Counted from the first letter of the stretch, positions 16,901 to 62,535 are shown. The stretch: DNA of 64,000 nt from an uncultured Gammaproteobacteria bacterium (GCA_947258425.1 CAMYIG010000001.1:866-64865); one strand, 5' to 3'. Translations and numbers: made by a program. Notes: generated from the sequence alone by a model not told the origin.

Positions 16901-17325
16901 TTCACCGTTTCGAGCAGTTGACGTTCTTGCGCCTCAGAGGAGATAGCCTTCAAATCATCAACGACCATGCTAAACAGCGTCGATGGCAACAACTTCTGAT
17001 AAAGTTCATCCTCGCCCTCTAAACAGGCAGTTCGTAACACTTCATGACGTTGTACTACCTGCTGAAGACTTTTCTCGAGAATTGTAAGATCTAACTCACC
17101 CTTGAGTCGCACTATAAAAGATTCATTATAAGCAGAGCTTGCAGGATCCATCTGATAGATAAACCAGAAACGTCGTTGCGCTGATGACAAAGGCACCATT
17201 ACATCTTCAGCAACACGTGGCAGCGGTAATTGTTTCAATCCAATCTCGATGTCATCCAGCATTACGTCAAATAATTCGAGCTGATCTGAAGAGAGCGCAT
17301 CCAGCGCTTGATATACATCCTTCAT
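13930..17325 (-). CDS. NRPS3: C-A(Gly-like)-T, no TE/R/terminal C domain
   Basis: - C domain about 15886-17208: LSSAQRRFWF, NHFAMDGLS.
- A domain about 14326-15828: LAYVIYTSGSTGKPKGV, NLYGPTETT, YRTGDL, PNGKLDRK.
- T domain about 14086-14298: FFDLGGHSLL.
- Then a 51 aa tail.
- Hand-derived code DILQLGLVW(K).
- The ATG overlaps the NRPS2 stop (ATGA). Confidence 0.92.
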   Translation of the reverse strand: MKDVYQALDALSSDQLELFDVMLDDIEIGLKQLPLPRVAEDVMVPLSSAQRRFWFIYQMDPASSAYNESFIVRLKGELDLTILEKSLQQVVQRHEVLRTACLEGEDELYQKLLPSTLFSMVVDDLKAISSEAQERQLLETVNAEISTPFDLTNDINLRVLVIQLAEDEHVFIMTTNHFAMDGLSVRLLVNEISTTYNAHKTDGSNPVGDGAGDNFIAQYRDFALWEKYWLASNEVNNQLEYWKAYLQDANTVLDLPTDHPRPRVMSFKGRTHRFLLPKTLSQQLKILSGTLGSTLFMSLLSAFQCLLYRYTNQEDILTGMSPTVRSRPELDSMFGDFSNNLVMRTEFSSDSTFRDIVEHVAESTVDCFSHQDLPFESILEKIPHHRALNHTSMFQVMFMLHNETLCDNFPLSGVEVSEYQFERGTAHFDLDLMLSDSADGISGALAYNADIFEAHTIERLVKLFEVLLMRVVEQPDAKLATLSLLDDEQRSLIINEWNNTNVVFPAESKLHELFEAQVERFPDKSACVFEDKHLSYAELNKRANQLAHYLIKAGVEPGQLIGICVERSLDMMVGLLGILKAGGAYVPLDPAYPTERLAYMLSDSQAPLVVIQAALKERLTGYAGRTVFIDSDWSKIAAEDDRNPLKQGQSDDLAYVIYTSGSTGKPKGVTLPHRAVVNFLCAMRRAPGLTEVDRLLAVTTISFDIAVLELYLPLTTGATTVIASRDAASDGTRLLALIASENITVMQATPITWRLLLESDWQGTSGLKVLCGGEAMPRELASQLVEKCDELWNLYGPTETTVWSMRYQVKRDADEATVLIGRPIENTQIYLLDEHLLPVPVGVPGEIYIGGAGLARDYLNRPELTAERFVPNPFDENSRLYRTGDLAFYHDDGNVEYMRRIDNQVKVRGFRIELGEIESALSEHDAIERAVVNVWENRPGDHRLVAYLIYKRGEGATVTEIRTHLRALLPEYMVPQHIVEMDGFPVTPNGKLDRKRLPAPFGDSYENDEYVSPETGTEKYLATVWCEALGIERVSVHDNFFDLGGHSLLSMKVIERIRKETAVVISPRVLLMESLGAIAATHSLPDVDSKPDIQDTGGQQQRSVDSSANVERKAAASPGFFNKIKNRLLNK

Positions 17326-21503: not shown

Positions 21504-21641
21504 ATGCTATTAATTTTTTTATTGAATACTTTTTTAGCTTAATACCATCATCATAATCATCAGTTAAATACAGGATTTAAACCGAATACAACGACAGCGA
21601 TTATCACAATCAACATGCAAAAGTGAGGATAATATTCTTTA

Positions 21642-27600: not shown

Positions 27601-27815
27601 TCAAATGAGCGCGAAACACATAACCCAACCAGTGAACCCGGCGTGACCTCCTGTGTGATAAGCGCATTGGCGAGCTGGTTTGCCTGAGCATTAAGCTCAC
27701 CATAGGTAAGCTGGCGATCCTCCCAGATCAAGGCCGTCTTATCAGGATTACGTTGCGCATTGAGTTCAAAGCGCTGGTAACAGGTCGAAAGAGTAGTCAC
27801 ACAATCACCATTCAC
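21642..27815 (-). CDS. NRPS1: A(Thr-like)-T-C-A(Gly-like, split by a luciferase-like monooxygenase domain)-T
   Basis: - A1 about 26271-27788: LAYVIYTSGSTGAPKGV, AFDFSVWE, NMYGITETT.
- T1 about 26031-26243: FFHAGGHSLL.
- C about 24666-25973: HHIVFDGWS.
- A2 about 21966-24593: LAYVIYTSGSTGRPKGV, SFDISVLE ... NMYGPTETT, YRTGDL, PNGKINRK.
- T2 about 21726-21938: FFEIGGHSLI.
- Starts directly with an A domain (loading module). Confidence 0.92.
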   Translation of the reverse strand: MNGDCVTTLSTCYQRFELNAQRNPDKTALIWEDRQLTYGELNAQANQLANALITQEVTPGSLVGLCVSRSFDTVIGILGILKAGAAYVPVDPNYPASRIAYTLNDAKPAVLVTQQTLVENLPACSAKILLIDAMEKGSSTVENPAVAVTDEHLAYVIYTSGSTGAPKGVQVTHKNVSRLFDSTNHWFDFGVDDVWTLFHSYAFDFSVWEIWGALSYGGSLVIVSAETARTPELFYTLLISQGVTVLNQTPSAFQQLQLVDEERHTADTLALRYVIFGGEALNLAALKPWISRHGDNAPQLINMYGITETTVHVTYRPISRDDVDHPKGSLIGRAIPDLKLYLFDDAMKPVIDGQKGELYVAGDGLSKGYLNRPDLTAERFINHTLENGTVIRLYRTGDLARRLSNNELEYLGRIDDQVQLRGFRIELGEIESLLIAYPEVKQVALNVIELGVGDQRLVAYVVKKSDSLQVDALRDYVANGLPVHMVPQHFVFVAEIPLTANGKVDKKALPHPRYADLFEDRDYVAPTGDTETRIAAIWQALLGVERVGVNANFFHAGGHSLLAAQMVARLRREFGVQLSITALFNSPTIAELAKYISSSAVTDVAVTQPVLHKKEHAGDIPLSFMQSRIWFFEQMEQVGALYNIPYAFKIDGDFDPELFKQAMAVIVKRHASMRTTFSVKGGAPTQVIAGQVDLPVFMHDLSQASDPQAEIDKLITNEAHTLFDIEQGPLWRCNIIKLAPSKYVMTFVIHHIVFDGWSVRLLASELEQVYGAMVSGVEPQLPQLSADYADYTAWQSTYMADDRLQAEIDYWLPRLKQMPPVLELPTDFPRSSVQQFNGSSVTLKIPSALHQRLNIIAQQERSSLFMLLLAAYQLLLHRYSSQENFVVGTAVANREPLETEAMLGLFMNSLPLCCDLSGDVSLRELIARVRKTTIADFAHQGLPFDKLVEALNPERDLRYAPVFQVMFIFDALEHESVMNLPGMRTIQLDTHSGTSKYDMTLYMWERPSGLEAVLEYCTDLFSQARMESMLAHYLKVLEVMVEDLNTPVASVPILPREEQQAILKIATGTATAYPENRCVFQLFEQQVVSTPDTSALAFHNDSLSYHELNARANQLAHYLVKHGVGVDDLVGVMLDRSFDMVIALLATWKTGAAYVPLDPTYPKDRLVYMADDAELALVVTQSDYANYLPGEKLLQVDLERSRIDVESDNNLEIPCASSSLAYVIYTSGSTGRPKGVMVEHRNVVNFFAGMDERIAHDSPGVWLAVTSISFDISVLEIFWSLCRGFKLVLYAGDDLKAGEVATRYPAQPIAFSLFYWNFVKDEASREADKYKLLLESAKYADKNGFEALWTPERHFGAFGGLYPNPSVIGAALAATTQNIGIRAGSCVVPLHSPIRIAEEWSVVDNLSNGRAGLSIAPGWQPNDFVIKPENHARAKEIMFDSVETIQQLWKGEAVTFAGPKGDVEVRTYPRPIQEKLPIWVTVAVNPDTFRQAGSIGAHVLTHLLGQDIEKVAENIRLYRSAWKEAGHAGDGQVTLMLHTFIGDDEAQVRDVAQQPMMDYLESAVSLVKAAAWHSPAWKQVSEGTEQTMDEFFNNISDEDRDSLLAFAFDRYYNHSGLFGNVERCVERADQLKEIGVDEIGCLIDFGIETEKVLAHLHYLSQVKEAANPPQSDGADKDYSIAALIERHNVTHFQCTPTMANMLASDQQMHHALGCLSHMMVGGEAFSSQLAVKLRSLVKGQVTNMYGPTETTIWSTTYHLHEADADIPLGSPIANTQTYVLDNNMQLQPLGVPGELVIAGDGVVRGYLNRPELTAEKFVKNSVSGDLNDRMYRTGDLVCMGRDGRLEFMGRIDHQVKLHGYRIELGEIEKLLLENTEVNDALVLLREDEPGNKKLVAYVVPDTGTDININALRNYLGQHLPEFMVPVNYVVLAGLPLLPNGKINRKKLPVPEQGNIDTQAEYVAPASEVEIQVATILQALLGLKQVGLYDNFFEIGGHSLIAVQLITRIRQDFAIDIPLQAIFLSPRLVDFSSKIEQMMLENVNEDELLALLGELEDE
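22821..23903 (-). other. Luciferase-like monooxygenase (MOx) domain inserted into the second A domain of NRPS1, between the A4 and A5 cores
   Basis: About 360 aa between SFDISVLE (A4 region) and VTHFQCTPT/MVGGEAF/NMYGPTETT: FSLFYWNFVKDE...ESAKYADKNGFEALWTPERHFGAFGGLYPNPSV...GRAGLSIAPGWQPNDF...MLHTFIGDDEAQ...GVDEIGCLIDFG. This is a TIM-barrel LLM-like sequence. Confidence 0.8.
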
Positions 27816-30821: not shown

Positions 30822-32942
30822 ATGAGCACACAGCAACAAGCCACCAATAGCACATGCTCTAAAACCCCCTTAAGCAAGCTCTCAGGGCTTTTTTCACTAG
30901 GTCTTTGCATATTAATCGCGGGTTGTGGCGGCGGCGGCTCATCATCTGAGAATGATTCTGCAGCCAGCACCACCACTAGCAGTATCTCTACAACCACAGT
31001 AGTCCTGCCGGTTATTAGTGCGCTGATTAATAACACTTCGGATGATGCTGAAGAATCTGTTGCTAACGGAGAAATGGACCTCATGAGCAGTGATATTGAA
31101 CTGATTAATGAGACTAATGGTGTGGGCGACCAGCTGGTTGGCTTACGTTACGCACTTCTGGTGCCAGACAACAGCACCATTACAAATGCATATATACAGT
31201 TTACTACAGATGAAGTGTCAACAGGCACCAGCAATTTAGTAATTAAAGGTGAAAATGCTATCGATGCTGCTGGCTTCACAACGACTAACTACAACATCTC
31301 TTCAAGGCAGACAACGAATACATCCGTGAACTGGACACCCCCAGACTGGAACGAAGTCGGTGAAAGTAATAATGCACAACGCACACCCGATCTGAGCACG
31401 ATCATTCAGGAAATCATTGAATTACCTAACTGGCAGATCAACAACCATATTGCCTTTATTATCAGCGGCAGTGGCACACGTACTTCTGTGTCACATAATG
31501 GCTCCCCAGTATTTGCACCAAAACTTCATGTGGAATACACAACATCACTAGCACCAGTACTCAACGATAGTATTCCAGTCGCATATCCAGACACATTGAC
31601 CACACCAGCGAATACCCCTGCAACGATTAATATCCTAACCAACGACCAGGGCATTGCTGATACACCTGTTTCTATCAGCATCAGCAGTGCGCCTTCAAAT
31701 GGCAATGTAGTGATTGGACAAAACGGTGCCATTACATACACACCTAATGGCGGTTATTCAGGTGCCGATTTGATCACTTACCAAATAACTGATGCAGATG
31801 GTGATACTGACACCGCTACTATTACGATTAATGTAACACCCACTGCCGTTGATTATATTCCAGTCGCCAATAGCGACAGCATTAGCCTCGATATCAACAC
31901 CGCTGCTTCTATAAATGTACTCACTAATGATACCGGGCTTGAAAATGGCGGCATCGTTGTGAGCATCAATAGCACTGCCTCAAACGGCACCATATCCATT
32001 GGTCAAAATGGCAACCTGACATATACCCCCAATAACAACTACATCGGGAATGATGGCTTTAGTTACAGAATCACCGATATTGATGGTGATACTAGCAGCG
32101 CCAGTGTCAATGTCACCGTGAGTGACATCGATCACTTTCCAGTCGCTAACGACGATAGCATCATGACTAACACCAACATTGCTGGCGCTATAAACATACT
32201 CACAAATGACACCGGCCTGGAAGATGGCAGCATTACCGTTAGCATTAATAGCGCACCAGCCAATGGTAATGTCTCAATCGGACAAAATGGACTGCTATCA
32301 TATACCCCAAATAATAATTACACAGGTAACGATGCATTTAGCTATGTGATTACAGATGCTGATGGCGACAGTGATAACGCAACCGTCAACATCACCGTTA
32401 CTTCAAATGATATCGATTACACGCCTGTTGCCAACACAGATAATGCCACCACACAAACCGTCACTCCCGTTACCATCGCGGTACTGAGTAATGACACGGG
32501 CATAGAAGATGGGCCAATCACAGTGTCGATTACAAGTGCGCCCTCTTATGGCAGTGTTGTCATCGAATCAGACAACACCGTTACTTACACCCCAAATGCA
32601 GGTCACTTCGGCCCTGATAGCTTTATCTATACCATTACTGATACTGACAGTGATAATGCAGCAGCCAACGTTGCGATCACGGTGGTATGCACATCCGGAA
32701 TCTGCACTAAAACCATTCGAGTTTCATGGAACGCTAACCCCGAGTCTGATCTCTCCGGTTATTACATCCATCATGGGACTCAATCAGGTGTTTATACCGA
32801 TAAAATATGGGTAGGTAACGTCACTTCGTATGACTATGAAACATCTGACTTAACCGGCCATTTCTTTGCCATATCTGCCGCAAATACGGCAAGTGATGAA
32901 TCCGGCCTGTCCAGTGAAGTCTCCATATCATTAGCGCTTTAA
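30822..32942 (+). CDS. Surface lipoprotein with four tandem ~95-aa Ig/cadherin-like repeats and a C-terminal FN3-like domain
   Basis: Lipobox LIAGC, then a G/S/T-rich linker and an uncharacterised ~180 aa N-terminal module. Four repeats of the type PVANxDxxxTxxxxxxxINxLTNDTGxEDGxIxVSIxSAPxNGxVxIxxNGxxTYTPNxxYxGxDxFxYxITDxDGDxxxAxVNxTV. C-terminal VSWNANPESDLSGYYIHHGTQSGVY...ISAANTASDESGLSSEV. Confidence 0.8.
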   Translation: MSTQQQATNSTCSKTPLSKLSGLFSLGLCILIAGCGGGGSSSENDSAASTTTSSISTTTVVLPVISALINNTSDDAEESVANGEMDLMSSDIELINETNGVGDQLVGLRYALLVPDNSTITNAYIQFTTDEVSTGTSNLVIKGENAIDAAGFTTTNYNISSRQTTNTSVNWTPPDWNEVGESNNAQRTPDLSTIIQEIIELPNWQINNHIAFIISGSGTRTSVSHNGSPVFAPKLHVEYTTSLAPVLNDSIPVAYPDTLTTPANTPATINILTNDQGIADTPVSISISSAPSNGNVVIGQNGAITYTPNGGYSGADLITYQITDADGDTDTATITINVTPTAVDYIPVANSDSISLDINTAASINVLTNDTGLENGGIVVSINSTASNGTISIGQNGNLTYTPNNNYIGNDGFSYRITDIDGDTSSASVNVTVSDIDHFPVANDDSIMTNTNIAGAINILTNDTGLEDGSITVSINSAPANGNVSIGQNGLLSYTPNNNYTGNDAFSYVITDADGDSDNATVNITVTSNDIDYTPVANTDNATTQTVTPVTIAVLSNDTGIEDGPITVSITSAPSYGSVVIESDNTVTYTPNAGHFGPDSFIYTITDTDSDNAAANVAITVVCTSGICTKTIRVSWNANPESDLSGYYIHHGTQSGVYTDKIWVGNVTSYDYETSDLTGHFFAISAANTASDESGLSSEVSISLAL
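31572..32690 (+). repeat. Four in-frame coding tandem repeats (periods 285, 279 and 285 nt)
   Basis: Repeat units begin at about 31572, 31857, 32136 and 32421 (att/ttt/acg cc[at] gt[ct] gc...). The units are clearly diverged at DNA level (by eye about two-thirds identical). Confidence 0.8.
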
Positions 32943-50845: not shown

Positions 50846-51718
50846 TTAGCGACGGCGGTTATCTACCCCATAACCATAATGGTCAGAGCTTTTTACGTGG
50901 TCACATTTATTCAATAACAACCCAACAGCTTTATCTTTTCCTAAAAGCTTCAGTGCATTTTTCACATCTGACTGCTTACTTTCCTCTGCCGCTACAACCA
51001 TGACAACCTGCCCAACCATCTCAGACAACACTACCGCTTCATTGGTTACAAGCAGCGGTGGAGCATCAAATATCACAATTCTATCGTTATAGCGCGATGC
51101 AAATTCAGCCATCAATTTCTTCATATTATTACTTGAAAGCAGCTCAACTGAATGAGGGTGGTGGCGGCCAGAAATCATCACTTTTAGATTAGGAATATCT
51201 GTTTCACAAATCAGGCCATCTAGCACAGAAGCCTCATCAAGCAAATAATCTACAAGCCCCGCCCCACCATCAGCATTCAATAACCGACTAATTGAAGGCC
51301 TCCCAAGATCAACATCCACCAGTAGTACTTTTTTGTCACGCTCCATCGCAATGCTTTTTGCAAGATTAATCGCGGTGAATGTTTTTCCTTCACCAGAAAG
51401 CGCACTCGTCACCATAATTAGATTGCCATTCTTAACAGGGGCAGTTTCAAACCCTGACGCATTATTGATTAATGGTCTTTTAATCCGTCTAAACTGCTCA
51501 GTAATGATGACGCCATCTTCACCATGTCCCATCACTTTATCAGACTTACTCCATATCAATACTTTATTACCGGACGATTGCGCCTGACTTGTTTTAACCC
51601 CGCCATCTACTTGTTGCTTGTCATGGTCAGGCATAGAGGAGGCACTTTCATCACTACGTTTTTTTCTAGCTTTATTATCAGTAATTTTATCAATTGCTTT
51701 CTCGATAATGCTCATCAC
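50846..51718 (-). CDS. Tyrosine-autokinase-like P-loop ATPase (CpsD/CapB/BY-kinase catalytic domain)
   Basis: Walker A VTSALSGEGKTFTAINLA, Walker A' VLLVDVDLGRPS, Walker B IVIFDAPPLL and a C-terminal HYGYG tyrosines. Confidence 0.85.
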   Translation of the reverse strand: MMSIIEKAIDKITDNKARKKRSDESASSMPDHDKQQVDGGVKTSQAQSSGNKVLIWSKSDKVMGHGEDGVIITEQFRRIKRPLINNASGFETAPVKNGNLIMVTSALSGEGKTFTAINLAKSIAMERDKKVLLVDVDLGRPSISRLLNADGGAGLVDYLLDEASVLDGLICETDIPNLKVMISGRHHPHSVELLSSNNMKKLMAEFASRYNDRIVIFDAPPLLVTNEAVVLSEMVGQVVMVVAAEESKQSDVKNALKLLGKDKAVGLLLNKCDHVKSSDHYGYGVDNRRR

Positions 51719-53292
51719 TAACCACCTATTCCTGTAGATACAATTGACATTAGAGCGTCAACATCAAATAAGGCAATAGCCAATACGATTAGGTATGAAG
51801 CAAACAAGCCAATGCACGCAACAATAAATACTGACAATGATAATTTTTGCGCCCTTTTTTCAGAGCCAGGAACTATCTTTGTCACTGATCCTAATGCCGT
51901 AGCACCTTCTATCTGAGACAGATCATCTTCCGTAATAAAGGTCGCCTTTAACATTCCAAATAATATCGCCAGTCCAACACCGCCGCCAATGCCCAGGAAC
52001 AAAACCATAGTGATGAACAGTCCTCGATGAGGCCAAACGGGCACCAGTGGAACTGCGGGAGGATCGATGATACGAAATTGCACGTCATCAACGCTTTGAG
52101 ACGCTTCTCTTGAAATTTTAGCCGACTCACGTCTAACTACTAACGCCTCATAATTTTGCTTATTAATAGTATAGTCTCGATTAAGTTTTGCGAGCTCAGC
52201 CTCTACCCGAGGCACAACATCGACCAGTTTTCTCAACCCCGCCACTCGGCGTTCATGCTCTACGACACGCACTTTCAACACTGAAACATCCGCTTCTGCA
52301 CGACCTAACGAGATTTTTAATTCCTGAAAAATCGGGTTATCTGCGTCACCGTCCGCCCATTGTGTCAGTTTCCGCGACTCAAGCTTGCCATCTCTTTGTG
52401 CTTTTAACTGCTCTATTGTCCGCTTCGCAGCAATCACATCAGGATGCTTGTCAGTAAACTGCAATAACAAACCATCCAGCGTCACTTCAAGCCCACTAAT
52501 CCGGCTATCAATGTCATTGACCCCTTGCACCATCCTGTCTTGCGTCAGCGGGATATCTCCATCAATTTGGCGCTGAAGCTCATCTCTTCTTCTTTCAGCT
52601 TCTCGTAAATCAAGCTTTGCTCGTTCCAGACCTTCCATGCCAATTCTTAAACGATCAAAATAGCCACCCGCTTCTGTCGGCATAAAACCAACATTTTTCC
52701 TTTTAAATACTTTTAGCCGTTCTTCTGCTTCTTCTAATTTCGCCTCATATTCGTCAATTTGCTGATCTAAAAACACTTCCGTTCTGCTTGTGTCTTTACG
52801 CGCTGTCATCAGGGTCGTTTCGACAAAAAGAGCCAGCAACTTTTCGACTACATTTTTTGCTAGAAGCGGGTTTTTATCCTGATATGAAATTACATATATT
52901 CCATCACCAGACGAGCCCTTCACATTTATTTTCTCACTCAGCCTGTTTATCACTCTCTCCAGATCTTCCGGGGTTTTTACCTCCAGATCTAACGCAGATT
53001 CCTTAACAATTTTTTCAAGATTTGGACGACTTAATAAGGTCCTACGGGTTGTCAGCGCCACTGCTGAACGCACATCACTATCAACTGCAATACCTCGCAA
53101 CACTGGCTGCAACATCGATTGAGTGTCGAGATAAACTCTCGTCATCGCCTCATACCGATCTGGCAAGACATAAACAACGCCCCAGCCTACCGCACAGATG
53201 ACCGCTGCTGTGACAATCGCAAGCCAGCGTCGTATCCAGGCAAGATGTGCCATTCGCGTATACTTCTTAAACTCCTCAAATGCGCCACTCAT
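51718..53292 (-). CDS. Polysaccharide chain-length determinant (PCP/GumC/Wzz family)
   Basis: N-terminal TM, PDRYEAMTRVYLD, a long coiled-coil periplasmic region, a proline-rich IDPPAVPLVPVWPHR motif before the C-terminal TM. Confidence 0.85.
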   Translation of the reverse strand: MSGAFEEFKKYTRMAHLAWIRRWLAIVTAAVICAVGWGVVYVLPDRYEAMTRVYLDTQSMLQPVLRGIAVDSDVRSAVALTTRRTLLSRPNLEKIVKESALDLEVKTPEDLERVINRLSEKINVKGSSGDGIYVISYQDKNPLLAKNVVEKLLALFVETTLMTARKDTSRTEVFLDQQIDEYEAKLEEAEERLKVFKRKNVGFMPTEAGGYFDRLRIGMEGLERAKLDLREAERRRDELQRQIDGDIPLTQDRMVQGVNDIDSRISGLEVTLDGLLLQFTDKHPDVIAAKRTIEQLKAQRDGKLESRKLTQWADGDADNPIFQELKISLGRAEADVSVLKVRVVEHERRVAGLRKLVDVVPRVEAELAKLNRDYTINKQNYEALVVRRESAKISREASQSVDDVQFRIIDPPAVPLVPVWPHRGLFITMVLFLGIGGGVGLAILFGMLKATFITEDDLSQIEGATALGSVTKIVPGSEKRAQKLSLSVFIVACIGLFASYLIVLAIALFDVDALMSIVSTGIGG

Positions 53293-53341
53293 CTTAACTT
53301 GCCTTTAGTATTAATATTAATGTACAGCCGTAAAATAGGCA

Positions 53342-53983
53342 TTAAAACCATGATTCCGGAATAATTAATATGTCACCAGGTCTCATTTCAACATTGGCAG
53401 AAATTTCCCCACCTGACATCAAGTCTTCAATCTTGACACGAAACTCTCTTCGTTCGCCGTCAATTTCACGAACAATATGAGCCTTATTGCCGGCGGCAAA
53501 CTCGGTTAATCCACCCACTGCAATCATCACATCTAGTAGTGTCATTGCCTCACGATATGGAAGCGCCTGAGGCTGTGCCGCAGCCCCTACCACTCTGATT
53601 TGCTGGTTATAAGGGCCGCCAAAGCCACTCACAATCACAGTAACAACAGGCTCTTTTATATATTTCGATAGCACACCCTCGATGTCTCGAGCCAACTGGG
53701 TGGGGGTTTTACCAATGGCGACCATATCCTCAACAAGTGGACTGGACACTGTCCCATTTGGACGTACCGGCACCGTGATAGAAACATCGGGATTACGCCA
53801 AACAAAAATATTTATCGTGTCACCCGGACCGATCAGGTATTCAGAGTGAGTCCTATCAGAACTCACACCGTCTAATGCCGGTGTTGGGAGCGACGTAGTC
53901 GATGCACAACCCACCAGTAAAACGGGTACAAAAAGAAACCCGGTAATGGCCCTTGCGCAAGATTTAAGTGAAAACATTTTCAC
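53342..53983 (-). CDS. Polysaccharide export outer-membrane lipoprotein (Wza/EpsE-like), first gene of the EPS operon
   Basis: Lipobox LLVGCAS. YLIGPGDTINIFVWRNPDVS (Poly_export PES motif), GTVSSPLVEDMVAIGKTPTQL and an SLBB-like C-terminal part. Confidence 0.85.
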   Translation of the reverse strand: MKMFSLKSCARAITGFLFVPVLLVGCASTTSLPTPALDGVSSDRTHSEYLIGPGDTINIFVWRNPDVSITVPVRPNGTVSSPLVEDMVAIGKTPTQLARDIEGVLSKYIKEPVVTVIVSGFGGPYNQQIRVVGAAAQPQALPYREAMTLLDVMIAVGGLTEFAAGNKAHIVREIDGERREFRVKIEDLMSGGEISANVEMRPGDILIIPESWF

Positions 53984-54351
53984 GTAATAGCCCTTCCTTA
54001 GTTCAAATTTGGTTAACCCGTTATTATAAATGAAATATCGTCATAATATACGAGCACTTTAACTACTCGCTCATTAAATCAGTCTAGCGTCGCACCTAAT
54101 TTAGCCAATTGACCCCTTCAATAATTATCGATAATAATATGTTTTATCGGGTACCAATATGCTGCAGCACTTTCAATCTATCGGCACAAGCTGGGGATCA
54201 AGCAAAAAATATAAATCAACACGCCAATTTCCATTCTTTGTTCATGGTCATTAGGTTTTTTAGTATACTTAATGTCGGATTATTTTACAGGCCATTAAAG
54301 ATAATTATCACAATAAATTTTATTTTGATAGATATCAACTAGTTATATTTA

Positions 54352-54367
54352 TGGCACGGTTAGTGCT
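54352..54367 (+). promoter_or_regulatory. Sigma-54 (-24/-12) promoter for the PEP-CTERM protein gene
   Basis: TGGCAC-ggtta-GTGCTT against the consensus TGGCAC-N5-TTGCW. GG/GC spacing is correct, and the element sits about 40 nt upstream of the ATG at 54407. A sigma-54 activator (prsR) is encoded nearby. Confidence 0.6.
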
Positions 54368-54406
54368 TAGAGTAAAGTAGATGTAAAATAATCGAGGATT
54401 TATCAA

Positions 54407-54970
54407 ATGAACAAAGTTTTTGCAGCAGCCCTGATACTACTATTAATAGTTGCAGGAAATGCACACGCAACATTATCAAACCCATACAGCTATACTCCAG
54501 AGGATCTGCAGACATTTTCACTGCAGCAGGATGCCCCTGGCGGTAGCGCACAAGCTTTTTATGGCATTTTCCCAGATGGCACCTTCACCACAATATGGGA
54601 TCGTTCAAATACAGGTGGAACGGCATATATTGGTGCGAGCGGCACCAAAGACCTGAGCGCTTTTGACGGCATAAGCTTGAATATTACCAATAGCTCATTT
54701 GCACCGATCTCAGCAGCACTCTATGTAGTCGAAGACGCCATGATCTATATAGGTAGCATCATTGAGCTGGATGACAATGAGACAGGCATCATGAAACTCG
54801 CTTTTGGTGGTCCAAGCCAGTCAACGACGATGGATGACCAGTACGGCTTCTTTACCGCACAGACTACAGGCTATATGACCCATGCAAAAGTGCCTGAGCC
54901 AGCAACCATCGCGATGATGGGACTTGGCCTGATCGGCCTGGGATTCATGGCAAGACGTAGAAACAGCTAA
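54407..54970 (+). CDS. PEP-CTERM sorting-domain protein (predicted XrtA substrate)
   Basis: Signal peptide MNKVFAAALILLLIVAGNAHA. C-terminus VPEPATIAMMGLGLIGLGFMARRRNS gives the VPEP motif, a TM helix and a basic cluster (54890-54967). Confidence 0.9.
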   Translation: MNKVFAAALILLLIVAGNAHATLSNPYSYTPEDLQTFSLQQDAPGGSAQAFYGIFPDGTFTTIWDRSNTGGTAYIGASGTKDLSAFDGISLNITNSSFAPISAALYVVEDAMIYIGSIIELDDNETGIMKLAFGGPSQSTTMDDQYGFFTAQTTGYMTHAKVPEPATIAMMGLGLIGLGFMARRRNS

Positions 54971-54997
54971 CAACAAAAAGGTGCCTAAGCACCATTG

Positions 54998-55033
54998 GCC
55001 CTCAGATAGCGAACCTATCTGAGGGCTTTTTTT
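54998..55033 (+). terminator. Rho-independent terminator after the PEP-CTERM gene
   Basis: gccctcagatag-cgaac-ctatctgagggc followed by ttttttt: perfect 12 bp stem with a 5 nt loop. Confidence 0.9.
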
Positions 55034-55042
55034 ATTCTCCAT

Positions 55043-57322
55043 TCACAAGCTATCACGTAACGCTTTAGCTAGCGCGTAGCTTGAGAACGAACCCGGTTTT
55101 GCAACTAGCAACTCATCCAGCAGATCTCTTGCTTTGTCAGCATCACCTGTTTTCGCATAACCTGCTGCCAGATGATACTGTATATCAGGCATCTTTGGTG
55201 CCCGCTCATGCGCATCCTCAAGTAAAGACAGACCTCGCTTCAATCGCCCTTCTTGAACCAGGATCCAGCCAAGCGTATCCAGAACCGAAGCATTCTCTTT
55301 ATTTAGCGCATAAGCACGCTCAGCAAATGACAATGCACGCTTATCACCAGCTTGTGAAAAAAACCAGGCAAGATCATTCAGGGCGATCAAATTTTCCGGA
55401 TCATTTTCGAGCAGTATTAAATAATGCCTGATTGCAGAGTCACTATCATTCAACTGGTTATAGCCCCCCACCAGCACTAACCGAGCTCTGGCGTCATCTG
55501 TAAACTCATCAAGCCACTGCTCAAGAAATGCCTGTGCCTGTGCAAGCTGATTAGCCTGTGCATAGGTCCGATGCACTTTGATCGCGATCGTACTCCGCCG
55601 TTCTTTTTGTAGTCCCATTTTATACTCAGCAAGGGCATCACTGTATCTCTTCTCCGACATCATCAAGTCGCCTGCCAGCTCAAATCCAACCGCGACATCA
55701 GGCGCCGCGTTCTTTACACCTTCAGCGACTTTTAATGCACTATCCACCTTGCCTTCACTAAGTTCAAGACGTACCAGATTGATCGCAGCAGGAAAATAAT
55801 CACCTTTAAGCTCCAATGCACGTTTCAGATATTGACGCGCATCATTATTATTACCCTTATTTAAATAAACTGTACCAAGCAAATGGTTAAAAACCGGTTG
55901 ATCTGGTGAACTGGAAACCATTTTCTTAGCAACTACAAGCGCTTGATCAAGGCGTTTCTCGCGCAGATAAAGCATCACCAGCAATACGCCTGCACGATCT
56001 GTGCGTTTCTCTAGCCCCTTCGCGTTTTCTAGCTCATTAATTGCAGCTTCAACGTGACCCTGCTTTAAATAGGACACCGCCAGCTCAGTTCTTGCAAAAT
56101 GATTATCCGGATCGTTATCAATCGCGGATCTGAGATAACGAACACCATTTTCAACATCGCCACTATAATTAGAAGCCGCCCCTATCAGTGCAAGTAACTG
56201 AGCATCAGTAGACGCATTCTTAAGTGCAGGGGAAAGCAGGTCAACCACCCCCTCGTGGTGTTGCTGCTGAAGCCGCAACGATGCCAGCATCTTACGTGCA
56301 GTAGTATTGTCAGGTTGTAAAATGACATAACGACTCAATAACTGGTCAGCTTGTTCCAAATTACCCATCGCATAATTGACCGCACCTAACATCAACATGG
56401 TCGGTTCATGCTCAGGCGCGAGTTGCTGAACAATTATCAGATATTTGCGTGCCGTATCGAGGTCACCACTTTCATATGCTATTTTTGCACGCATAAAATT
56501 GGGTAGTGGATGTTGAGGCAGAAGCGCTATAAGCTCATCGACTACCGCGAGTGCCTCTTCGTTCTTTTGCTGTGCATTCAATACGCCTACCAGGCCTAAG
56601 CGTGCCTGCACTGAATACTGACTAGACACTTGCTTAGGTTCATTTAACAAAACAAATTTATAGCTATTCTCAGCCACAGAAAAATTCGCGTTGATAGTGG
56701 CTACTTTTCCTTTTAGAAGCAAGGCCTCCGCATTTTTATCATCGATAGCCAATAAATTATCAATATATTGCGATGCCTGACCAATCTTATCCTCTAATAA
56801 ACTTAACCTCGCCAAACCAATATTTGCAAAAGCTGATTGACTGTTAATCTTTAATGCGGCGCTAAAATCAGCTCGTGCCTCATTAAATTTCTGAGAACCC
56901 AGTAGCGCTTCACCCCTTAGTGCGAGTAAATCAGACTTTGACTTTTTCGACAGGTCCTGATCGATGCTAATTTCATCCAATAATTGAGTGTATTTTTTCT
57001 GTATTAATAATGACCGCGAAAGTAATATTACAACATCGTCATTACCTGACGTCTGCATACCCAGCACTCGTCGAAGTTCTCGTTCACCACTTTCACCGTC
57101 ACCGGTATCAACATAGATAGCACCTAACAGATATCGCGCACGCACACTTGACTCATCTTGCTGGAGAACATTCTTTAGCTCAATCACTGCTGAACGATAG
57201 TTTTTCTCCTGAAAAAATACTTCGGCTCGCTGCATATGCTCAGCCGGATCCAGACTTGCTTTCTCACAGGCCGCGACCAAAAAAATCAAAAAGACAAGAC
57301 ACCAGAAACGTTTTTTCTTCAT
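55043..57322 (-). CDS. prsT: PEP-CTERM system TPR-repeat lipoprotein
   Basis: Lipobox FLVAAC. 759 aa of continuous TPR repeats. Immediately downstream of xrtA. Confidence 0.8.
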   Translation of the reverse strand: MKKKRFWCLVFLIFLVAACEKASLDPAEHMQRAEVFFQEKNYRSAVIELKNVLQQDESSVRARYLLGAIYVDTGDGESGERELRRVLGMQTSGNDDVVILLSRSLLIQKKYTQLLDEISIDQDLSKKSKSDLLALRGEALLGSQKFNEARADFSAALKINSQSAFANIGLARLSLLEDKIGQASQYIDNLLAIDDKNAEALLLKGKVATINANFSVAENSYKFVLLNEPKQVSSQYSVQARLGLVGVLNAQQKNEEALAVVDELIALLPQHPLPNFMRAKIAYESGDLDTARKYLIIVQQLAPEHEPTMLMLGAVNYAMGNLEQADQLLSRYVILQPDNTTARKMLASLRLQQQHHEGVVDLLSPALKNASTDAQLLALIGAASNYSGDVENGVRYLRSAIDNDPDNHFARTELAVSYLKQGHVEAAINELENAKGLEKRTDRAGVLLVMLYLREKRLDQALVVAKKMVSSSPDQPVFNHLLGTVYLNKGNNNDARQYLKRALELKGDYFPAAINLVRLELSEGKVDSALKVAEGVKNAAPDVAVGFELAGDLMMSEKRYSDALAEYKMGLQKERRSTIAIKVHRTYAQANQLAQAQAFLEQWLDEFTDDARARLVLVGGYNQLNDSDSAIRHYLILLENDPENLIALNDLAWFFSQAGDKRALSFAERAYALNKENASVLDTLGWILVQEGRLKRGLSLLEDAHERAPKMPDIQYHLAAGYAKTGDADKARDLLDELLVAKPGSFSSYALAKALRDSL

Positions 57323-57339
57323 CCTATTCCCCTTGAATA

Positions 57340-58929
57340 CTAGTTATCACGTCGCGTATATTCTGCATTTAACTGTCCATTCAGCTCATCAAGCCGCACA
57401 CTTATATGCGGCATCATCTGCCTATAAAACAGCGCCAACTCCCTCCGAGCAGAATCAGCACCCTGATCGCTATCTATAGATATTGAAACCACCATTGCAC
57501 TTCTATTTGAAATGATCGCGCCCCAGATATCCAGTAGCTTGGCGGTGATTTGACTGGTCGTAGATATCCCCGCGACATTGTACCAATACCAGATTACTTT
57601 TTCTTTCGATGAGCGAAACTCAACTTCAACCACCTGTTGACTTTCAAAATCGCTGACTAAAATATGTCGCACACCACCTGGTACAACAACCTCATTGGCG
57701 CCCGTAAAAAAACCATTTTCTGAATTGATTAACTCCGCCCCCTGTCGTTGATGCGCATAGTATGCAACATACAACATGACTGACTCATCGCCCTTGTGAT
57801 ATTTTGCGGCGAGTACTTTGTCCGCGCCATGAAATAAGGGGCGCCAGCCATCATCAATATACTCAGGACCAATCCATTTTTCAGCCCCTTTAGGAAACAC
57901 TAAATCGACAGAAGAAAATGTATTAGGCAACGACAGGGCTTGTGACTCTACATTCTTTATCACTACAAAAAAAATAATTAACCCCGTTAGCACGCCGCCA
58001 TATAAATATTGCTTACGCAGGGGTAATACTTCATCTCTAACATTTCTCGGCTTAAATTTAGTTTCACTAATAATGCCTGTCTTTTGTTTTTCTTTAGGCA
58101 TCAGTATCCATAATAAAGGATACATCAACCCTGCGTATAACGCCCACCCAAGGCCTTCATGATCCTCGACCATCCAGTGTTGCATATCGGTCAGGTGTCC
58201 AATCCAGATGATGATCAACACCCGCAACCAGTTTAATGCAATCGACCAAAAAACGATGATCGAAAACACCATCAAACGTTTACGATTACCCTCGAAAAAA
58301 ACATATACGTAAAGAGAACCTAATGCCATAGATGCGAGTAAGAACCTAAGCCCGCCACATACCTCTTCGATTAAAAATCGTCCTTCAGGTATTGTCAGAT
58401 AGTACCCCTCCATTAGCGTTGGAATACCCTGAAACTGCAGTACTTTATATGCAACCACTGCCGTCATATCCTGCAGTATAGACGCGACTGGGTCCCATAT
58501 AGGTGTTGCGAAAATAAGATAGCTCAGCGGAAAGAAAAGCACGCGGCCAGTTTGATTTCCAAAAACAGCCCATATCAGCGCAGGAAACATCATGATAAAA
58601 CTTACATATTCTACCGTCATCACGCCAACAAGCCTTGAAACCAACCAGAGTAGCGATAACGCTATTAACACACTCAAGCCAAGCTTCGATGGTACAGGCA
58701 CGATATCACCAAGCAGCATCCTACGCTGCCAAATCAAATACGCGCTTACTATGACCACAAGAAAACCGTAGCTGTATTGGCTGGACTCCCACCAAAAAGT
58801 AACGACCGAAGCAGCAGTATCGGAAAATAATGTCGCTAATACTAATATTAAAACAACACTGGAAACTAGCGGGACAGTCCATAGTGAGTGGCCAGACTCA
58901 ACTCCCCCTCTAGCCCCCGTTTTATCCAT
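57340..58929 (-). CDS. xrtA: Exosortase A with fused C-terminal EpsI-family domain
   Basis: Polytopic core with the exosortase catalytic-type residues: Cys191 in EEVCGGLRFL (codon 58357-58359), Arg236 in LNWLRVL, His257 in EDHEGLGW. After an extra TM, a periplasmic domain (about 57343-58032) with VMLYVAYYAHQRQGAELINSEN typical of EpsI. Confidence 0.88.
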   Translation of the reverse strand: MDKTGARGGVESGHSLWTVPLVSSVVLILVLATLFSDTAASVVTFWWESSQYSYGFLVVIVSAYLIWQRRMLLGDIVPVPSKLGLSVLIALSLLWLVSRLVGVMTVEYVSFIMMFPALIWAVFGNQTGRVLFFPLSYLIFATPIWDPVASILQDMTAVVAYKVLQFQGIPTLMEGYYLTIPEGRFLIEEVCGGLRFLLASMALGSLYVYVFFEGNRKRLMVFSIIVFWSIALNWLRVLIIIWIGHLTDMQHWMVEDHEGLGWALYAGLMYPLLWILMPKEKQKTGIISETKFKPRNVRDEVLPLRKQYLYGGVLTGLIIFFVVIKNVESQALSLPNTFSSVDLVFPKGAEKWIGPEYIDDGWRPLFHGADKVLAAKYHKGDESVMLYVAYYAHQRQGAELINSENGFFTGANEVVVPGGVRHILVSDFESQQVVEVEFRSSKEKVIWYWYNVAGISTTSQITAKLLDIWGAIISNRSAMVVSISIDSDQGADSARRELALFYRQMMPHISVRLDELNGQLNAEYTRRDN

Positions 58930-58938
58930 AAAAACTGC

Positions 58939-60312
58939 TCACTTTAATCCGTGTCTTTCTAATAAGGTGTACAGCGTCGGACGACTCACACCAAGCAACT
59001 CCGCCATCTGAGAGATATTATTACCACACACCCCCATCGCTCTACGAAGTGCCTGTAGTTCTGCTGCATGTTTAATCTCACGTAAGTTAAGCTGGATATC
59101 AGCATCAGCCGTTATCGATTCTAAATCAAGATCTTCGGCAGTAATGTGACTTTCATCTGCCATGATCACCGCCCGCTTAACACGATTTTCTACTTCTCTA
59201 ACATTACCCGGCCATAGGTGAGCTTCTATCTCAACCAGCGCATCTCTGGAAAACCCTTTTATATTCTTATTGTTCTCTCGATTAAAACGCTCCAGAAAGG
59301 TTCTAGCGAGCAATAGCGCATCATCTGATCGCTCACAAAGCGGTGGGATTTTGATTGTCATTTCGCTAATCCGATAATATAAATCTTCTCTAAACCGTCC
59401 ATCACTCACCTGGCCTTCCAGATTCTGGTGTGTTGCACAGACAACTCGCACATCGACAGGAATTTCATCTCGTCCCCCAATGCGCTCAATCACTCTTTCT
59501 TGTAAAAAACGTAATAATTTTGCTTGCAGCGGCTGACCAAGATCACCTATCTCATCAAGAAAAAGCGTACCGCCGTGTGCACACTCAATCTTGCCCAGCG
59601 TCTGCTTAGCCGCCCCGGTAAAAGCACCTTTCTCATAACCAAAAAGCTCACTTTCTAAAAGATTCTCTGGAATCGCAGCACAATTTATTGCAACAAAACG
59701 CTTGCTGGCGCGATCACTCATATCGTGTAATGCACGCGCAAGCAACTCCTTTCCTGTGCCGCTATCACCAAGTAGTAATGTAGTGATATCTGTCGGCGCA
59801 ACCTTTTCGATCGTCTTACAGATTTTCTGCATAACATCACTTGCGAAAACGATCCCGCCAAATGTAGTTTCAAAACCCTGCTTTAATAACATCTTATTTT
59901 GCAGTTCAAGCGCCCTAAGGTAAGCTGCGCGATCAACGACAAACTTCAATGTATCCGGTTTCACCGGTTTCTGATAAAAATCATACGCACCGAGACCAAT
60001 GGCTCTCATTGCATTTTTATCATCATCATTACCTGTCACAACAATTACTTTTGCACTCGCATCATGCTCAATGATCTCAGTCAGCGCAGCAAGCCCTTCA
60101 CTTGCATTTTCTGGGTCAGGCGGTAAACCCAAATCAAGCGTGATCACATCTGGACAATGTTCAGTTAACTGTTTGATGCCTTCCGCACGATCAGCGGCAA
60201 CGATCACTTCATAGCCATCAAAACACCAACGCATCTGACTCTGCAAACCAGGGTCGTCTTCAATCACTAACACCTTTTTCAAAGCCTGCTTCGATACTGC
60301 CACAGTAGTCAC
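58939..60312 (-). CDS. prsR: Sigma-54-dependent response regulator (NtrC family), PEP-CTERM-box regulator
   Basis: Receiver domain (VLVIEDD...DVITLDLGLPP), AAA+ sigma-54 interaction domain (GDSGTGKE, GAFTGA, ESELFGYEKGAFTGA, RFREDLYYR) and a C-terminal Fis-type HTH. Confidence 0.88.
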   Translation of the reverse strand: MTTVAVSKQALKKVLVIEDDPGLQSQMRWCFDGYEVIVAADRAEGIKQLTEHCPDVITLDLGLPPDPENASEGLAALTEIIEHDASAKVIVVTGNDDDKNAMRAIGLGAYDFYQKPVKPDTLKFVVDRAAYLRALELQNKMLLKQGFETTFGGIVFASDVMQKICKTIEKVAPTDITTLLLGDSGTGKELLARALHDMSDRASKRFVAINCAAIPENLLESELFGYEKGAFTGAAKQTLGKIECAHGGTLFLDEIGDLGQPLQAKLLRFLQERVIERIGGRDEIPVDVRVVCATHQNLEGQVSDGRFREDLYYRISEMTIKIPPLCERSDDALLLARTFLERFNRENNKNIKGFSRDALVEIEAHLWPGNVREVENRVKRAVIMADESHITAEDLDLESITADADIQLNLREIKHAAELQALRRAMGVCGNNISQMAELLGVSRPTLYTLLERHGLK

Positions 60313-60315
60313 CTT

Positions 60316-62400
60316 TTATTTAGTTTGCTCATTATAACGAGGTATCTTGATAAAAAACCTCGTCCCACGCTGAAGTTGACTATCGACGGCTATGGTTCCA
60401 TCCAGACCACTAATAAACTCTCGGGCCTCATAAACACCTATTCCCATTCCAGCATTTCCCTTAGTTGTGTCAAACGGACGAAAGAGGCGTTCACGTATAA
60501 ACACTTCATCCATACCACTGCCACTATCTTCTATCGTAATATTAGCCCAATCGTTACTTGACGCTAATCGAATTTCTACACTACCGTTTTCGTCTGTGGC
60601 TTCTTGCGCATTTTGTACCAGATGTTCAATCACAGACAGCATTCTGTCATATTCAGCTAAAATTAAAATCTCATCGTCGCATCCAACCACCCTCGGAACA
60701 GGCTGAGTGACTGACCTGTTCTCAACCGCACTTTTTAATAATGAACCCAACCTCACTACAGCTTTACCACTTGAAAAGGTACTTTCGCCCTTTAACTGCG
60801 ATAGCATTCGATTCATTTTTCCTACCGAATTATTAACAGTCCCAAGTGCGTCATCAATAAATTCTGGCTTATTCTTGAACTTTTTTGCGTTCTCGACCAC
60901 CAATGACAGCTGACCAACCACATTTTTAAGGTCATGCACAACATAAGCGGACAAACGATTAAAGGCCTCAAACTGACGTGCGTCTAATAACGCCTGATTT
61001 GCTTCGAGTAATGCTAGGTAACTGGCAAGTTCGCGCCCCGCGATCCTTAACAGATCGATATCTTCCCAGTTGAAATGGTCTCCACCACGTGATTTAGCCA
61101 ACACAACAAAACCGAAAATCTCTGTTTTTTTCATTAGTGGAACAATAAGCCAGACATCCTGTAGTTCACTTAGCCATGCGGGTAACTTAAGACCGCGATA
61201 TAAACTTGTGTCAATCTTATACTCATTCAAGTTCACTACCCATTGCCATTTTTCCATAAACATCACCAGTGAGCTATTTCTATCCTCTATTGCATGCTCA
61301 GGGAGCCCCATATCCCAGCCACTTACGGGCTTATACCCTTTATCATGTTCACTATATAACCATAGTCCCCCACCCGAACTTTCCACGATATCTGCAATCG
61401 CTTTAATTGCGCGCACACGCAACTGTTCGTCTGTCCCCCCCATAGAAAGCGCTCGAATAAATGTTATCCACTGTTCACGGTAATCGTATTTATATGCAAA
61501 GAAATTCTTCGCCAAGTAGACCTTTAGGTATGCACGTATTTGCCCAGAAAACATTAATACAAGCAATAAAATCAGAGCGCCCATAACAAAAACGACCTGA
61601 ATAACCCCGCCCCAGTCACCCCCAAAAAACTGTATGTAATAGCCAGCTACCGCCATTATCAGCAAGTATATACCGGCACTTATTATCGACACTGTATGAA
61701 AAACAACTCGATGTGATACCGCCTCATTGATCGCCCAATTACGATTTCGCTGCATTGAGATTGCAATCAAAGGCATAGCAAGTGCGCTTACAACTCCTCG
61801 CGCATTCCAGAAATCAGGATTAATAGACCCAAAGAGCAATGCCTCTGAATAGAGAAACAGGTCGTATACAAACATACTGCCGACCCCCAAACATAGAAAC
61901 TTATATACCCATCGTTCATCTGCCCAAATATTTCGAGCCAGCTGTTCTACCAGGACCAGCCCCGCTACCGCTAAAATGACATGTCCAAATAAAGCGGAAT
62001 ACCCCCCCATAAAACTTAAAGGCATAGCACCTACGACCGCGAGATATAAATACCTAAAGAAAAGAGCAAGCGCACAAACACCACATATCAGGGCAAGTAC
62101 AATTAGTTTCAGATTGAAACCCTTACCTCGCTCATCAGAGTTCCGTACCAACTGCACCAACCAGAAGAAGAGCGTTAGCCATGCCACATTTTTGGCAATC
62201 TCGAGCAAAGGGAAAACTGAGGATATAGCTGCGAATGCAGCCTGATATGCGCCAGCCGCCGACCACAAAGTAGTGACGCCTAGTGTTATCGCAAGAATAA
62301 TGCCGCCTGAGCGTTGACGCCAGCCGAACAACGAAATAATTGTTAACAGCAGGAATAACGCCGCCGAAATAGAGTAACTTGCTGCGCCTACATTCAACAT
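60316..62400 (-). CDS. prsK: XrtA/PEP-CTERM system sensor histidine kinase
   Basis: About 10 N-terminal TM segments, a central GAF-like region, the H-box AYVVHDLKN, and the HATPase N/G boxes (LVQNAQEAT, EDSGSGMD, GMGIGVYE). Adjacent to prsR with a 3 nt gap. Confidence 0.85.
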   Translation of the reverse strand: MLNVGAASYSISAALFLLLTIISLFGWRQRSGGIILAITLGVTTLWSAAGAYQAAFAAISSVFPLLEIAKNVAWLTLFFWLVQLVRNSDERGKGFNLKLIVLALICGVCALALFFRYLYLAVVGAMPLSFMGGYSALFGHVILAVAGLVLVEQLARNIWADERWVYKFLCLGVGSMFVYDLFLYSEALLFGSINPDFWNARGVVSALAMPLIAISMQRNRNWAINEAVSHRVVFHTVSIISAGIYLLIMAVAGYYIQFFGGDWGGVIQVVFVMGALILLLVLMFSGQIRAYLKVYLAKNFFAYKYDYREQWITFIRALSMGGTDEQLRVRAIKAIADIVESSGGGLWLYSEHDKGYKPVSGWDMGLPEHAIEDRNSSLVMFMEKWQWVVNLNEYKIDTSLYRGLKLPAWLSELQDVWLIVPLMKKTEIFGFVVLAKSRGGDHFNWEDIDLLRIAGRELASYLALLEANQALLDARQFEAFNRLSAYVVHDLKNVVGQLSLVVENAKKFKNKPEFIDDALGTVNNSVGKMNRMLSQLKGESTFSSGKAVVRLGSLLKSAVENRSVTQPVPRVVGCDDEILILAEYDRMLSVIEHLVQNAQEATDENGSVEIRLASSNDWANITIEDSGSGMDEVFIRERLFRPFDTTKGNAGMGIGVYEAREFISGLDGTIAVDSQLQRGTRFFIKIPRYNEQTK

Positions 62401-62535
62401 TCAATTATCATCGGCGATGAGAAAACCCTAAAATGGCAAAATATTATAAATTATGAACATCAAAATATAGCGCACTTACACGCAGTCCGTGACATTCCAG
62501 ACAGGACTCGCCTCATCAGTGAAACCAGTTAACGA

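Follow-up and report, generated by a model that had tools for sequence, protein, structure and literature searches.

The PEP-CTERM box of proteobacteria was defined by Haft, Paulsen, Ward and Selengut in 2006 (BMC Biol 4:29; PMC1569441). They found it upstream of 99 of 167 proteobacterial PEP-CTERM genes, and most such genes are single-gene operons that lie behind large intergenic regions, typically over 200 nt (PMC1569441). The box has two parts. Motif 1 is 17 nt long and ends in TTTACA. After a spacer (mean 62.8 nt, SD 10.6, range 32-92) comes motif 2, also of 17 nt, which fits the -24/-12 promoter of sigma-54 and lies on average 71 nt from the start codon (range 23-221) (PMC1569441). Across 13 proteobacterial genomes, the phylogenetic profile of the element was exactly that of PrsR, PrsK, and PrsT (PMC1569441).

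The element also has experimental backing in other bacteria. In Aquincola tertiaricarbonis RN12, primer extension placed the transcription start of pepA downstream of TGGCAC/CTGCTT, and the gene requires RpoN1 for its transcription (PMC9850573). The authors of that study also note a predicted enhancer upstream of pepA and a terminator ahead of prsT. The mutant was not complemented by a plasmid with prsK or with prsK-prsR (PMC9850573). In Zoogloea resiniphila MMB, transcription of the PEP-CTERM gene pepA is under the control of RpoN and PrsK-PrsR (Gao et al. 2018, as summarised in PMC9012009). According to the same summary, the Zoogloea mutants still make exopolysaccharide and lose flocculation, and overexpression of PepA bypasses PrsK and PrsR.

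Here we describe a further instance of this known element, in a 64,000-nt stretch of DNA (the window) from an uncultured gammaproteobacterium. Very probably, positions 54273-54368 form a complete PEP-CTERM box, an enhancer-dependent promoter from which a single PEP-CTERM cargo gene is transcribed. We also describe two patterns in the architecture of the box that emerged from a comparison with other loci and with metagenomes.

The cargo gene and its neighbours

The gene behind the promoter encodes a secreted PEP-CTERM protein (Table 1). Its N-terminus, MNKVFAAALILLLIVAGNAHA, is a Sec-type signal peptide that ends in ...GNAHA, and its C-terminal tail is VPEPATIAMMGLGLIGLGFMARRRNS. The tail scores 27 bits against TIGR02595, where the cut-off is 16. 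The protein is PepA-like by role and is not a member of the PepA family: it scores 53.6 bits against floc_PepA (NF033554), whose cut-off is 80, and only profile positions 139-261 (the C-terminal half) align. The FxDxF model gives 41.3 bits, which is also below its cut-off (50). The sequence-only reading, which preceded this analysis and was made by eye, had described this as the only gene for a PEP-CTERM substrate, and for the window this holds. An HMM built from the tails of other loci finds the cargo ORF at E 1.9e-14 (the next best match in the window has E > 1), and a scan of the window with regular expressions turned up no further convincing tail of this kind.

The mature domain (encoded by 54470-54886) is rarely seen elsewhere. 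An exhaustive search of 1.84 billion representatives gave 8 relatives at E <= 1e-3. Five of these are PEP-CTERM proteins of 185-207 aa with the same layout and a common "(Y/F)DG...NSS" block. Two long repeat proteins match the first 60 residues of the cargo query in 7-8 stretches, and one of these two (P0003) repeats "APDGTATxxWxRSxG", which resembles FPDGTFTTIWDRSNTG in the cargo. A word-indexed search for homologues of the cargo returned the same protein at 99% identity only, and we found no record of the exact protein of the window.

Downstream of the cargo gene is an intrinsic terminator, so the gene is expected to be monocistronic. (The terminator scan also found a second hairpin on the other strand, which would serve the convergent prsT.) Beyond it lie four genes that we called with the curated NCBIfam cut-offs (Table 1). 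The fusion of XrtA and EpsI is the sorting enzyme for the cargo protein. The next two genes had been named prsR and prsK from the sequence by eye, and both names were correct, as each protein exceeds its curated cut-off. The translation of prsR contains the GAFTGA motif, a Walker A motif, and a Fis-type helix-turn-helix (HTH) at the C-terminus. A gene for a TIGR03013 glycosyltransferase comes after prsK. On the divergent side, an XrtA-type exopolysaccharide cluster extends down to about 34.9 kb; it includes genes for an export protein, a chain-length determinant, a tyrosine kinase, an outer-membrane protein, glycosyltransferases, deacetylases, and WecB. There is no rpoN within the 64-kb window.

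Other parts of the window call for brief mention. Adjoining the exopolysaccharide cluster, at 30822-32942 (+), is a gene for a 706-aa protein with Big_9 and cadherin-like repeats; it is a putative surface adhesin and has no PEP-CTERM tail. Three genes for non-ribosomal peptide synthetases (NRPS), which are unrelated to the promoter, occupy 13930-27815 (-) and encode proteins of 1131, 1393, and 2057 aa. One of these has an embedded luciferase-like monooxygenase domain and another has a nitroreductase domain.

A second strain is represented by a contig from a metagenome-assembled genome (L081; GCA_945787585.1, CALZIG010000140.1), an 11-kb stretch of which is 99.9% identical to positions 51519-62500 of the window. 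Two differences fall in the promoter region, an extra T after 54372 (between the -12 element and the predicted +1) and a change of C>A at 54404; the elements of the box are identical. At 99.9% identity, this comparison is uninformative for footprinting.

Table 1. Features of the cargo promoter and of the adjacent XrtA genes, with positions counted from the first nucleotide of the window
Feature	Coordinates	Strand	Relative to predicted +1	Sequence	Basis
Motif 1 of PEP-CTERM box, predicted PrsR enhancer site	54273-54289	+	-105 to -89	TGTCGGATTATTTTACA	Cross-species matrix
AT-rich spacer between activator site and promoter, 62 nt, 19% GC	54290-54351	+			
Candidate IHF site	54333-54345	+	-45 to -33	TATCAACTAGTTA (consensus WATCAANNNNTTR)	Exact consensus match
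Motif 2, sigma-54 -24/-12 promoter	54352-54368	+	-26 to -10	TGGCACGGTTAGTGCTT	Sequence and cross-species matrix
Predicted transcription start	54377-54379 (+1 at about 54378)	+			Sigma-54 geometry, counting the C of GC as position -12
Inverted half-box, 12 nt, exact reverse complement of the 3' two-thirds of motif 1	54382-54393	-	+5 to +16	GATTATTTTACA	Inverted-repeat scan
Shine-Dalgarno	54394-54398	+	+17 to +21	GAGGA	From sequence, 8 nt 5' of ATG
Cargo gene, 187-aa secreted PEP-CTERM protein	54407-54970	+	ATG at +30		TIGR02595
Second hairpin, for convergent prsT	54993-54980	-			Terminator scan
Intrinsic terminator, 13-bp stem and T-run, downstream of cargo gene	54997-55027	+			
prsT, XrtA/PEP-CTERM system TPR-repeat protein	55043-57322	-			TIGR02917, 595 bits (cut-off 312)
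Exosortase XrtA fused to EpsI domain	57340-58929	-			TIGR03109, 233.9 bits (cut-off 208); TIGR02914, 99.4 bits (cut-off 42.8)
prsR, sigma-54 enhancer-binding response regulator	58939-60312	-			TIGR02915, 683.6 bits (cut-off 502.6)
prsK, transmembrane histidine kinase, partner of PrsR	60316-62400	-			TIGR02916, 763.7 bits (cut-off 300)

The promoter and the activator site

We then examined motif 2. The GG of the -24 element is at 54353-54354 and the GC of the -12 element is at 54365-54366, which is the canonical spacing. The sequence-only reading had reported these two elements correctly, along with their spacing, and had placed the promoter about 40 nt from the ATG (the distance from the end of the motif to the ATG at 54407 is 38 nt). 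It went wrong in ending the motif at 54367, as the 17-mer reaches 54368. Compared to TGGCACG-N4-TTGCW, the only departure is a G instead of T at -15. Among the metagenomic matches listed (see below), 14 of 120 other boxes also have G at this position, and T is commoner. If transcription starts at the position predicted from the geometry of sigma-54 promoters, then the 5' UTR would be about 29 nt long. The predicted leader shows no unusual folding (z = +1.0), and a search of the whole window against Rfam gave no match.

Matches to the consensus are about as frequent as expected by chance. The pattern TGGCAC-N6-TGCW occurs once in the window, where 0.36 occurrences are expected, and 34 of 100 shuffled sequences have at least one. 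Similarly, the 16-mer consensus with one mismatch allowed gives 1 match, with 0.89 expected. Neither count is above chance, so the case for the promoter rests on context and comparison. These counts are also what would be seen if the motif were a chance GG-N10-GC in AT-rich intergenic DNA, with the gene transcribed from a sigma-70 promoter instead. A candidate for such a promoter is TTGACC-18-AATAAT (54109-54138), about 270 nt upstream, which matches at 10 of 12 positions; but sigma-70-like sites in the region are at the chance level (4, with 3.2 expected). Furthermore, both motifs of the box are the top matrix matches of the window, and they are at the canonical spacing. We scored the window (128 kb, counting both strands) with matrices built from 16 sites outside it, which had been preselected with a loose regular expression, so that the information at fixed positions is inflated. 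By these matrices, motif 2 scores 21.1 bits, which is the best in the window and is reached by 2 of 200 null sequences, and motif 1 scores 23.0 bits, with the next match in the window at 15.1 and none of 200 null sequences reaching its score. Together with the comparisons below, in which the composite element stands before 16 of 17 PEP-CTERM genes of other species and the spacer lengths exclude chance for such sites among the metagenomic matches listed, this makes a chance origin with sigma-70 transcription very improbable.

The second-best match to motif 2 on either strand of the window scores 18.4 bits. This sequence, TGGCATGCTGGGTGCTG at 19346-19362 (-), lies inside the ORF for the 1393-aa NRPS, on the same strand as that ORF and with no motif 1 upstream, and is probably a chance match. 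We also considered whether the divergent export operon has a sigma-54 promoter of its own on the minus strand, and rejected this, as the matrix has no match for one in the intergenic region.

The DNA upstream of the promoter is AT-rich: positions 54100-54350 are 30% GC, against 46% for the window, and the whole upstream intergenic region (423 nt) is 32% GC. The sequence-only reading had noted this correctly. It had also proposed that this DNA could hold IHF and activator sites, and had picked out no convincing inverted repeat. We find that a predicted activator site is present, in the form of motif 1, which had been overlooked. Motif 1 is a 17-mer of the form TGTCG-N6-TTTACA (other loci share YGTCG-N6-TTTACA) with a weak TGT/ACA dyad and no obvious inverted repeat, which is probably why it escaped the eye. 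It precedes motif 2 on the same strand, as it should, with 62 nt between it and TGGCAC. As for the IHF site, the candidate in the spacer matches the consensus exactly, is in the direct orientation, and ends 6 nt before TGGCAC, which is a position that is conserved in other boxes (see below). This suggests that IHF may bind there, as had been proposed.

The intergenic region seems to have just one copy of motif 1, as the next best score there is -0.3 bits. The matrices found no second PEP-CTERM box on either strand of the window, including at the exopolysaccharide genes. Several inverted repeats in the region (an imperfect palindrome at 54300-54336 and others) were considered as activator sites and rejected: they are AT-rich and their positions are not conserved elsewhere. 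The spacer of the box also contains two sigma-70-like hexamer pairs (within 54282-54338, on the minus strand) that face the divergent export operon; their number is at the chance level.

The box in related loci

To compare the window with other loci, we fetched 80 related XrtA loci via the neighbouring export protein (53-68% protein identity). These are from Gammaproteobacteria, Betaproteobacteria, and a few Alphaproteobacteria. A loose composite pattern (motif 1, a spacer, and motif 2) gave 20 matches, including the one in the window, of which 16 are directly upstream of PEP-CTERM ORFs. Conversely, the 80 loci contain 17 ORFs with a PEP-CTERM tail, and the composite is upstream of all but one of them. 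In 14 of the loci with a box, we compared the downstream protein to the cargo protein of the window, and the C-terminal sorting tail was the only part in common. Because the proteins are alike in the tail only, the cis element is conserved with the class of genes and is not inherited with a gene family.

The box in metagenomes

We then searched metagenome contigs with the exact pattern TGTCG-N6-TTTACA-N50-80-TGGCAC-N6-TGC, and found at least 120 sites. Among the 120 matches listed, the spacers fall into three classes: 50-53 nt (16 boxes), 59-66 nt (77 boxes), and 71-76 nt (27 boxes). No spacers have intermediate lengths, and the classes are separated by steps of about 11 bp. The spacer in the window (62 nt) belongs to the main class among these matches. 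The 16 boxes from genome loci extend the series, with spacers of 84-85 and 94-98 nt. Quantised spacers are expected if activation depends on the face of the helix, while chance matches would spread evenly. This implies that essentially all of the metagenomic matches are real and that the activator site must keep to a single helical face with respect to the promoter.

The spacers are also enriched in the IHF consensus. Among the matches listed, 59 of 120 spacers contain it with at most one mismatch, compared to 9.6 +/- 2.9 in shuffled spacers, and it is enriched in 15 genome-derived spacers as well. Furthermore, its position is nearly fixed. Among the matches listed, 19 of the 25 sites in the direct (+) orientation end 5-7 nt before TGGCAC, and 30 of the 40 sites in the inverted (-) orientation have a gap of 18-20 nt. 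The candidate site in the window, with its gap of 6 nt, has the commonest offset for the direct orientation among these matches.

Where the contig extends far enough beyond a metagenomic box, a recognisable PEP-CTERM gene follows in most cases. Of 71 listed boxes with at least 1,100 nt downstream, 44 are followed by a PEP-CTERM ORF, as identified by a small tail HMM (14 sequences). The tail HMM recognised no PEP-CTERM ORF after the other 27 (about 38%), and several of these are visibly followed by proteins with variant tails. Others may be targets of PrsR that are not PEP-CTERM proteins. A second copy of motif 1 within 150 nt upstream is found for only 18 of the 120 boxes listed, and the window has none.

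Neither spacer phasing nor IHF is mentioned in the paper that defined the box (PMC1569441) or in the Aquincola paper (PMC9850573). Judging from these sequence patterns, the spacer classes at steps of about 11 bp and the IHF site at a fixed position are modest refinements of the published box and not a new phenomenon. They do make the likely mechanism of the box clearer, and they could guide biochemical work on PrsR. In particular, they predict that insertions of 5 bp in the spacer would abolish activation and that insertions of 11 bp would be tolerated.

An inverted half-box downstream of the promoter

The leader of the cargo gene contains a perfect inverted copy of the 3' two-thirds of motif 1 (Table 1). 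The upstream arm of this 12-nt repeat (GATTATTTTACA, facing TGTAAAATAATC in the downstream arm) is at 54278-54289, inside motif 1, so that the two arms flank the sigma-54 promoter, and the downstream arm abuts the Shine-Dalgarno sequence. This half-box is specific to the window and is absent from the 2006 description of the PEP-CTERM box.

The half-box may have arisen by coincidence, or it may act as a local operator. As an operator, it could be a second site for PrsR or for another protein, which would form a loop, sit on the promoter, or block elongation or translation, giving feedback that is specific to this gene. Just 1.4-2% of shuffled intergenic regions have a non-overlapping 12-nt inverted repeat, and the involvement of motif 1 at one end and of the Shine-Dalgarno sequence at the other fits this idea; but we made this observation post hoc, and the downstream arm, in which the invariant TGTCG half is missing, scores -6.3 bits with the matrix for motif 1. 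The repeat is identical in the second strain, but at 99.9% identity its conservation there is uninformative. The half-box is not conserved in other boxes: TGTAAA is not enriched downstream of motif 2, where it occurs in 5 of the 120 metagenomic boxes listed, with 2.4 expected. Overall, we put little faith in an operator at this site. If there is one, it would add negative or feedback control, which has not been described for PEP-CTERM genes. We also considered whether the repeat came from a MITE-like element, and rejected this: no target-site duplication accompanies the repeat, which does not extend over the 5' half of motif 1.

How the promoter might work

We propose the following mechanism for the box. 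RNA polymerase with sigma-54 would bind the -24/-12 element as a closed complex. PrsK would sense a signal and phosphorylate PrsR, which would then bind motif 1. By bending the spacer at its candidate site, IHF would bring PrsR to the right face of the helix, where the GAFTGA loop of PrsR would contact sigma-54. Hydrolysis of ATP by PrsR would open the promoter, and the transcript would start near 54378 and end at the terminator behind the cargo gene. The product would be secreted via Sec and handed to the exosortase XrtA that is encoded next door. For the organism of the window, the binding of PrsR and of IHF, the transcription start, and the dependence on RpoN are all predictions from its DNA.

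An alternative concerns the binding of PrsR to motif 1, which we infer from phylogenetic profiling and mutant phenotypes. The promoter could be a genuine sigma-54 promoter with another activator, in which case motif 1 would be bound by a different regulator or PrsR would act indirectly. In the literature that we searched, we found no experiment on the binding of PrsR to DNA, such as a mobility-shift assay on motif 1, and Haft and colleagues tied the two together through phylogenetic profiles alone (PMC1569441). Those profiles do agree exactly, with motif 1 following PrsK, PrsR, and PrsT across the 13 proteobacterial genomes. Of the genetic evidence, the failure of the prsK and prsK-prsR plasmids to complement in Aquincola (PMC9850573) speaks for another activator, and the bypass of PrsK and PrsR by overexpressed PepA in Zoogloea, as given in the summary cited above (PMC9012009), speaks against one. 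At the locus itself, PrsR is encoded just 4.5 kb away and has both the GAFTGA motif and a Fis-type HTH, and no further sigma-54 activator is evident in the annotated part of the window. We therefore consider another activator to be unlikely, and we favour PrsR as the protein that would bind motif 1.

Discussion

As a discovery, little is at stake here: this is one more PEP-CTERM box, a kind of element with genetic support from floc-forming Betaproteobacteria. Its use lies in annotation, as the box marks a 187-aa protein as a likely cargo, controlled by PrsK/PrsR, of the adjacent XrtA exosortase and exopolysaccharide locus. The exopolysaccharide genes themselves have no box, which agrees with the reports that polysaccharide synthesis is independent of PrsK/PrsR. 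The promoter is compact (about 135 bp from motif 1 to the ATG), which makes it suitable for reporter tests or for tests of PrsR binding.

There is no essential difference between the window and the published description of the box. Motif 1 ends in TTTACA, the spacer is 62 nt long where the mean was 62.8, and motif 2 is 38 nt from the start codon. The cargo gene forms a single-gene operon behind a 423-nt intergenic region, and PrsK, PrsR, and PrsT are all encoded within 8 kb. With all of the defining features of the element present, the earlier proposal that a sigma-54 promoter puts this PEP-CTERM gene under the control of PrsK/PrsR seems well supported.

The arrangement around pepA in Aquincola and Zoogloea is also similar. 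There, as in the window, a PEP-CTERM gene lies beside prsT with a terminator between the two, the promoter has the form TGGCAC ... (C/G)TGCTT, and an enhancer is predicted upstream. One difference is in the kind of evidence: the dependence on RpoN was established by experiment in both of those bacteria (in Zoogloea, as summarised, the dependence on PrsK/PrsR was as well), whereas the window is known from its sequence alone. Another difference is in the cargo. The window's protein is not a PepA equivalog; its family, of proteins about 190 aa long, is a rare one, and its gene is convergent with prsT.

More broadly, the box resembles the classical IHF-assisted sigma-54 promoters with activators of the NtrC family, such as nifH with NifA (which binds TGT-N10-ACA) and Pu with XylR. 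Those promoters share with the window an activator site that lies some 100 bp from the start, strict helical phasing, an activator carrying the GAFTGA motif, and an IHF site (a candidate one, in the window) in the DNA that separates the activator site from the promoter. The activator site itself is what sets the window apart: it is a single asymmetric 17-mer (TGT-N11-ACA), whereas the classical sites are clear palindromes or occur in pairs.
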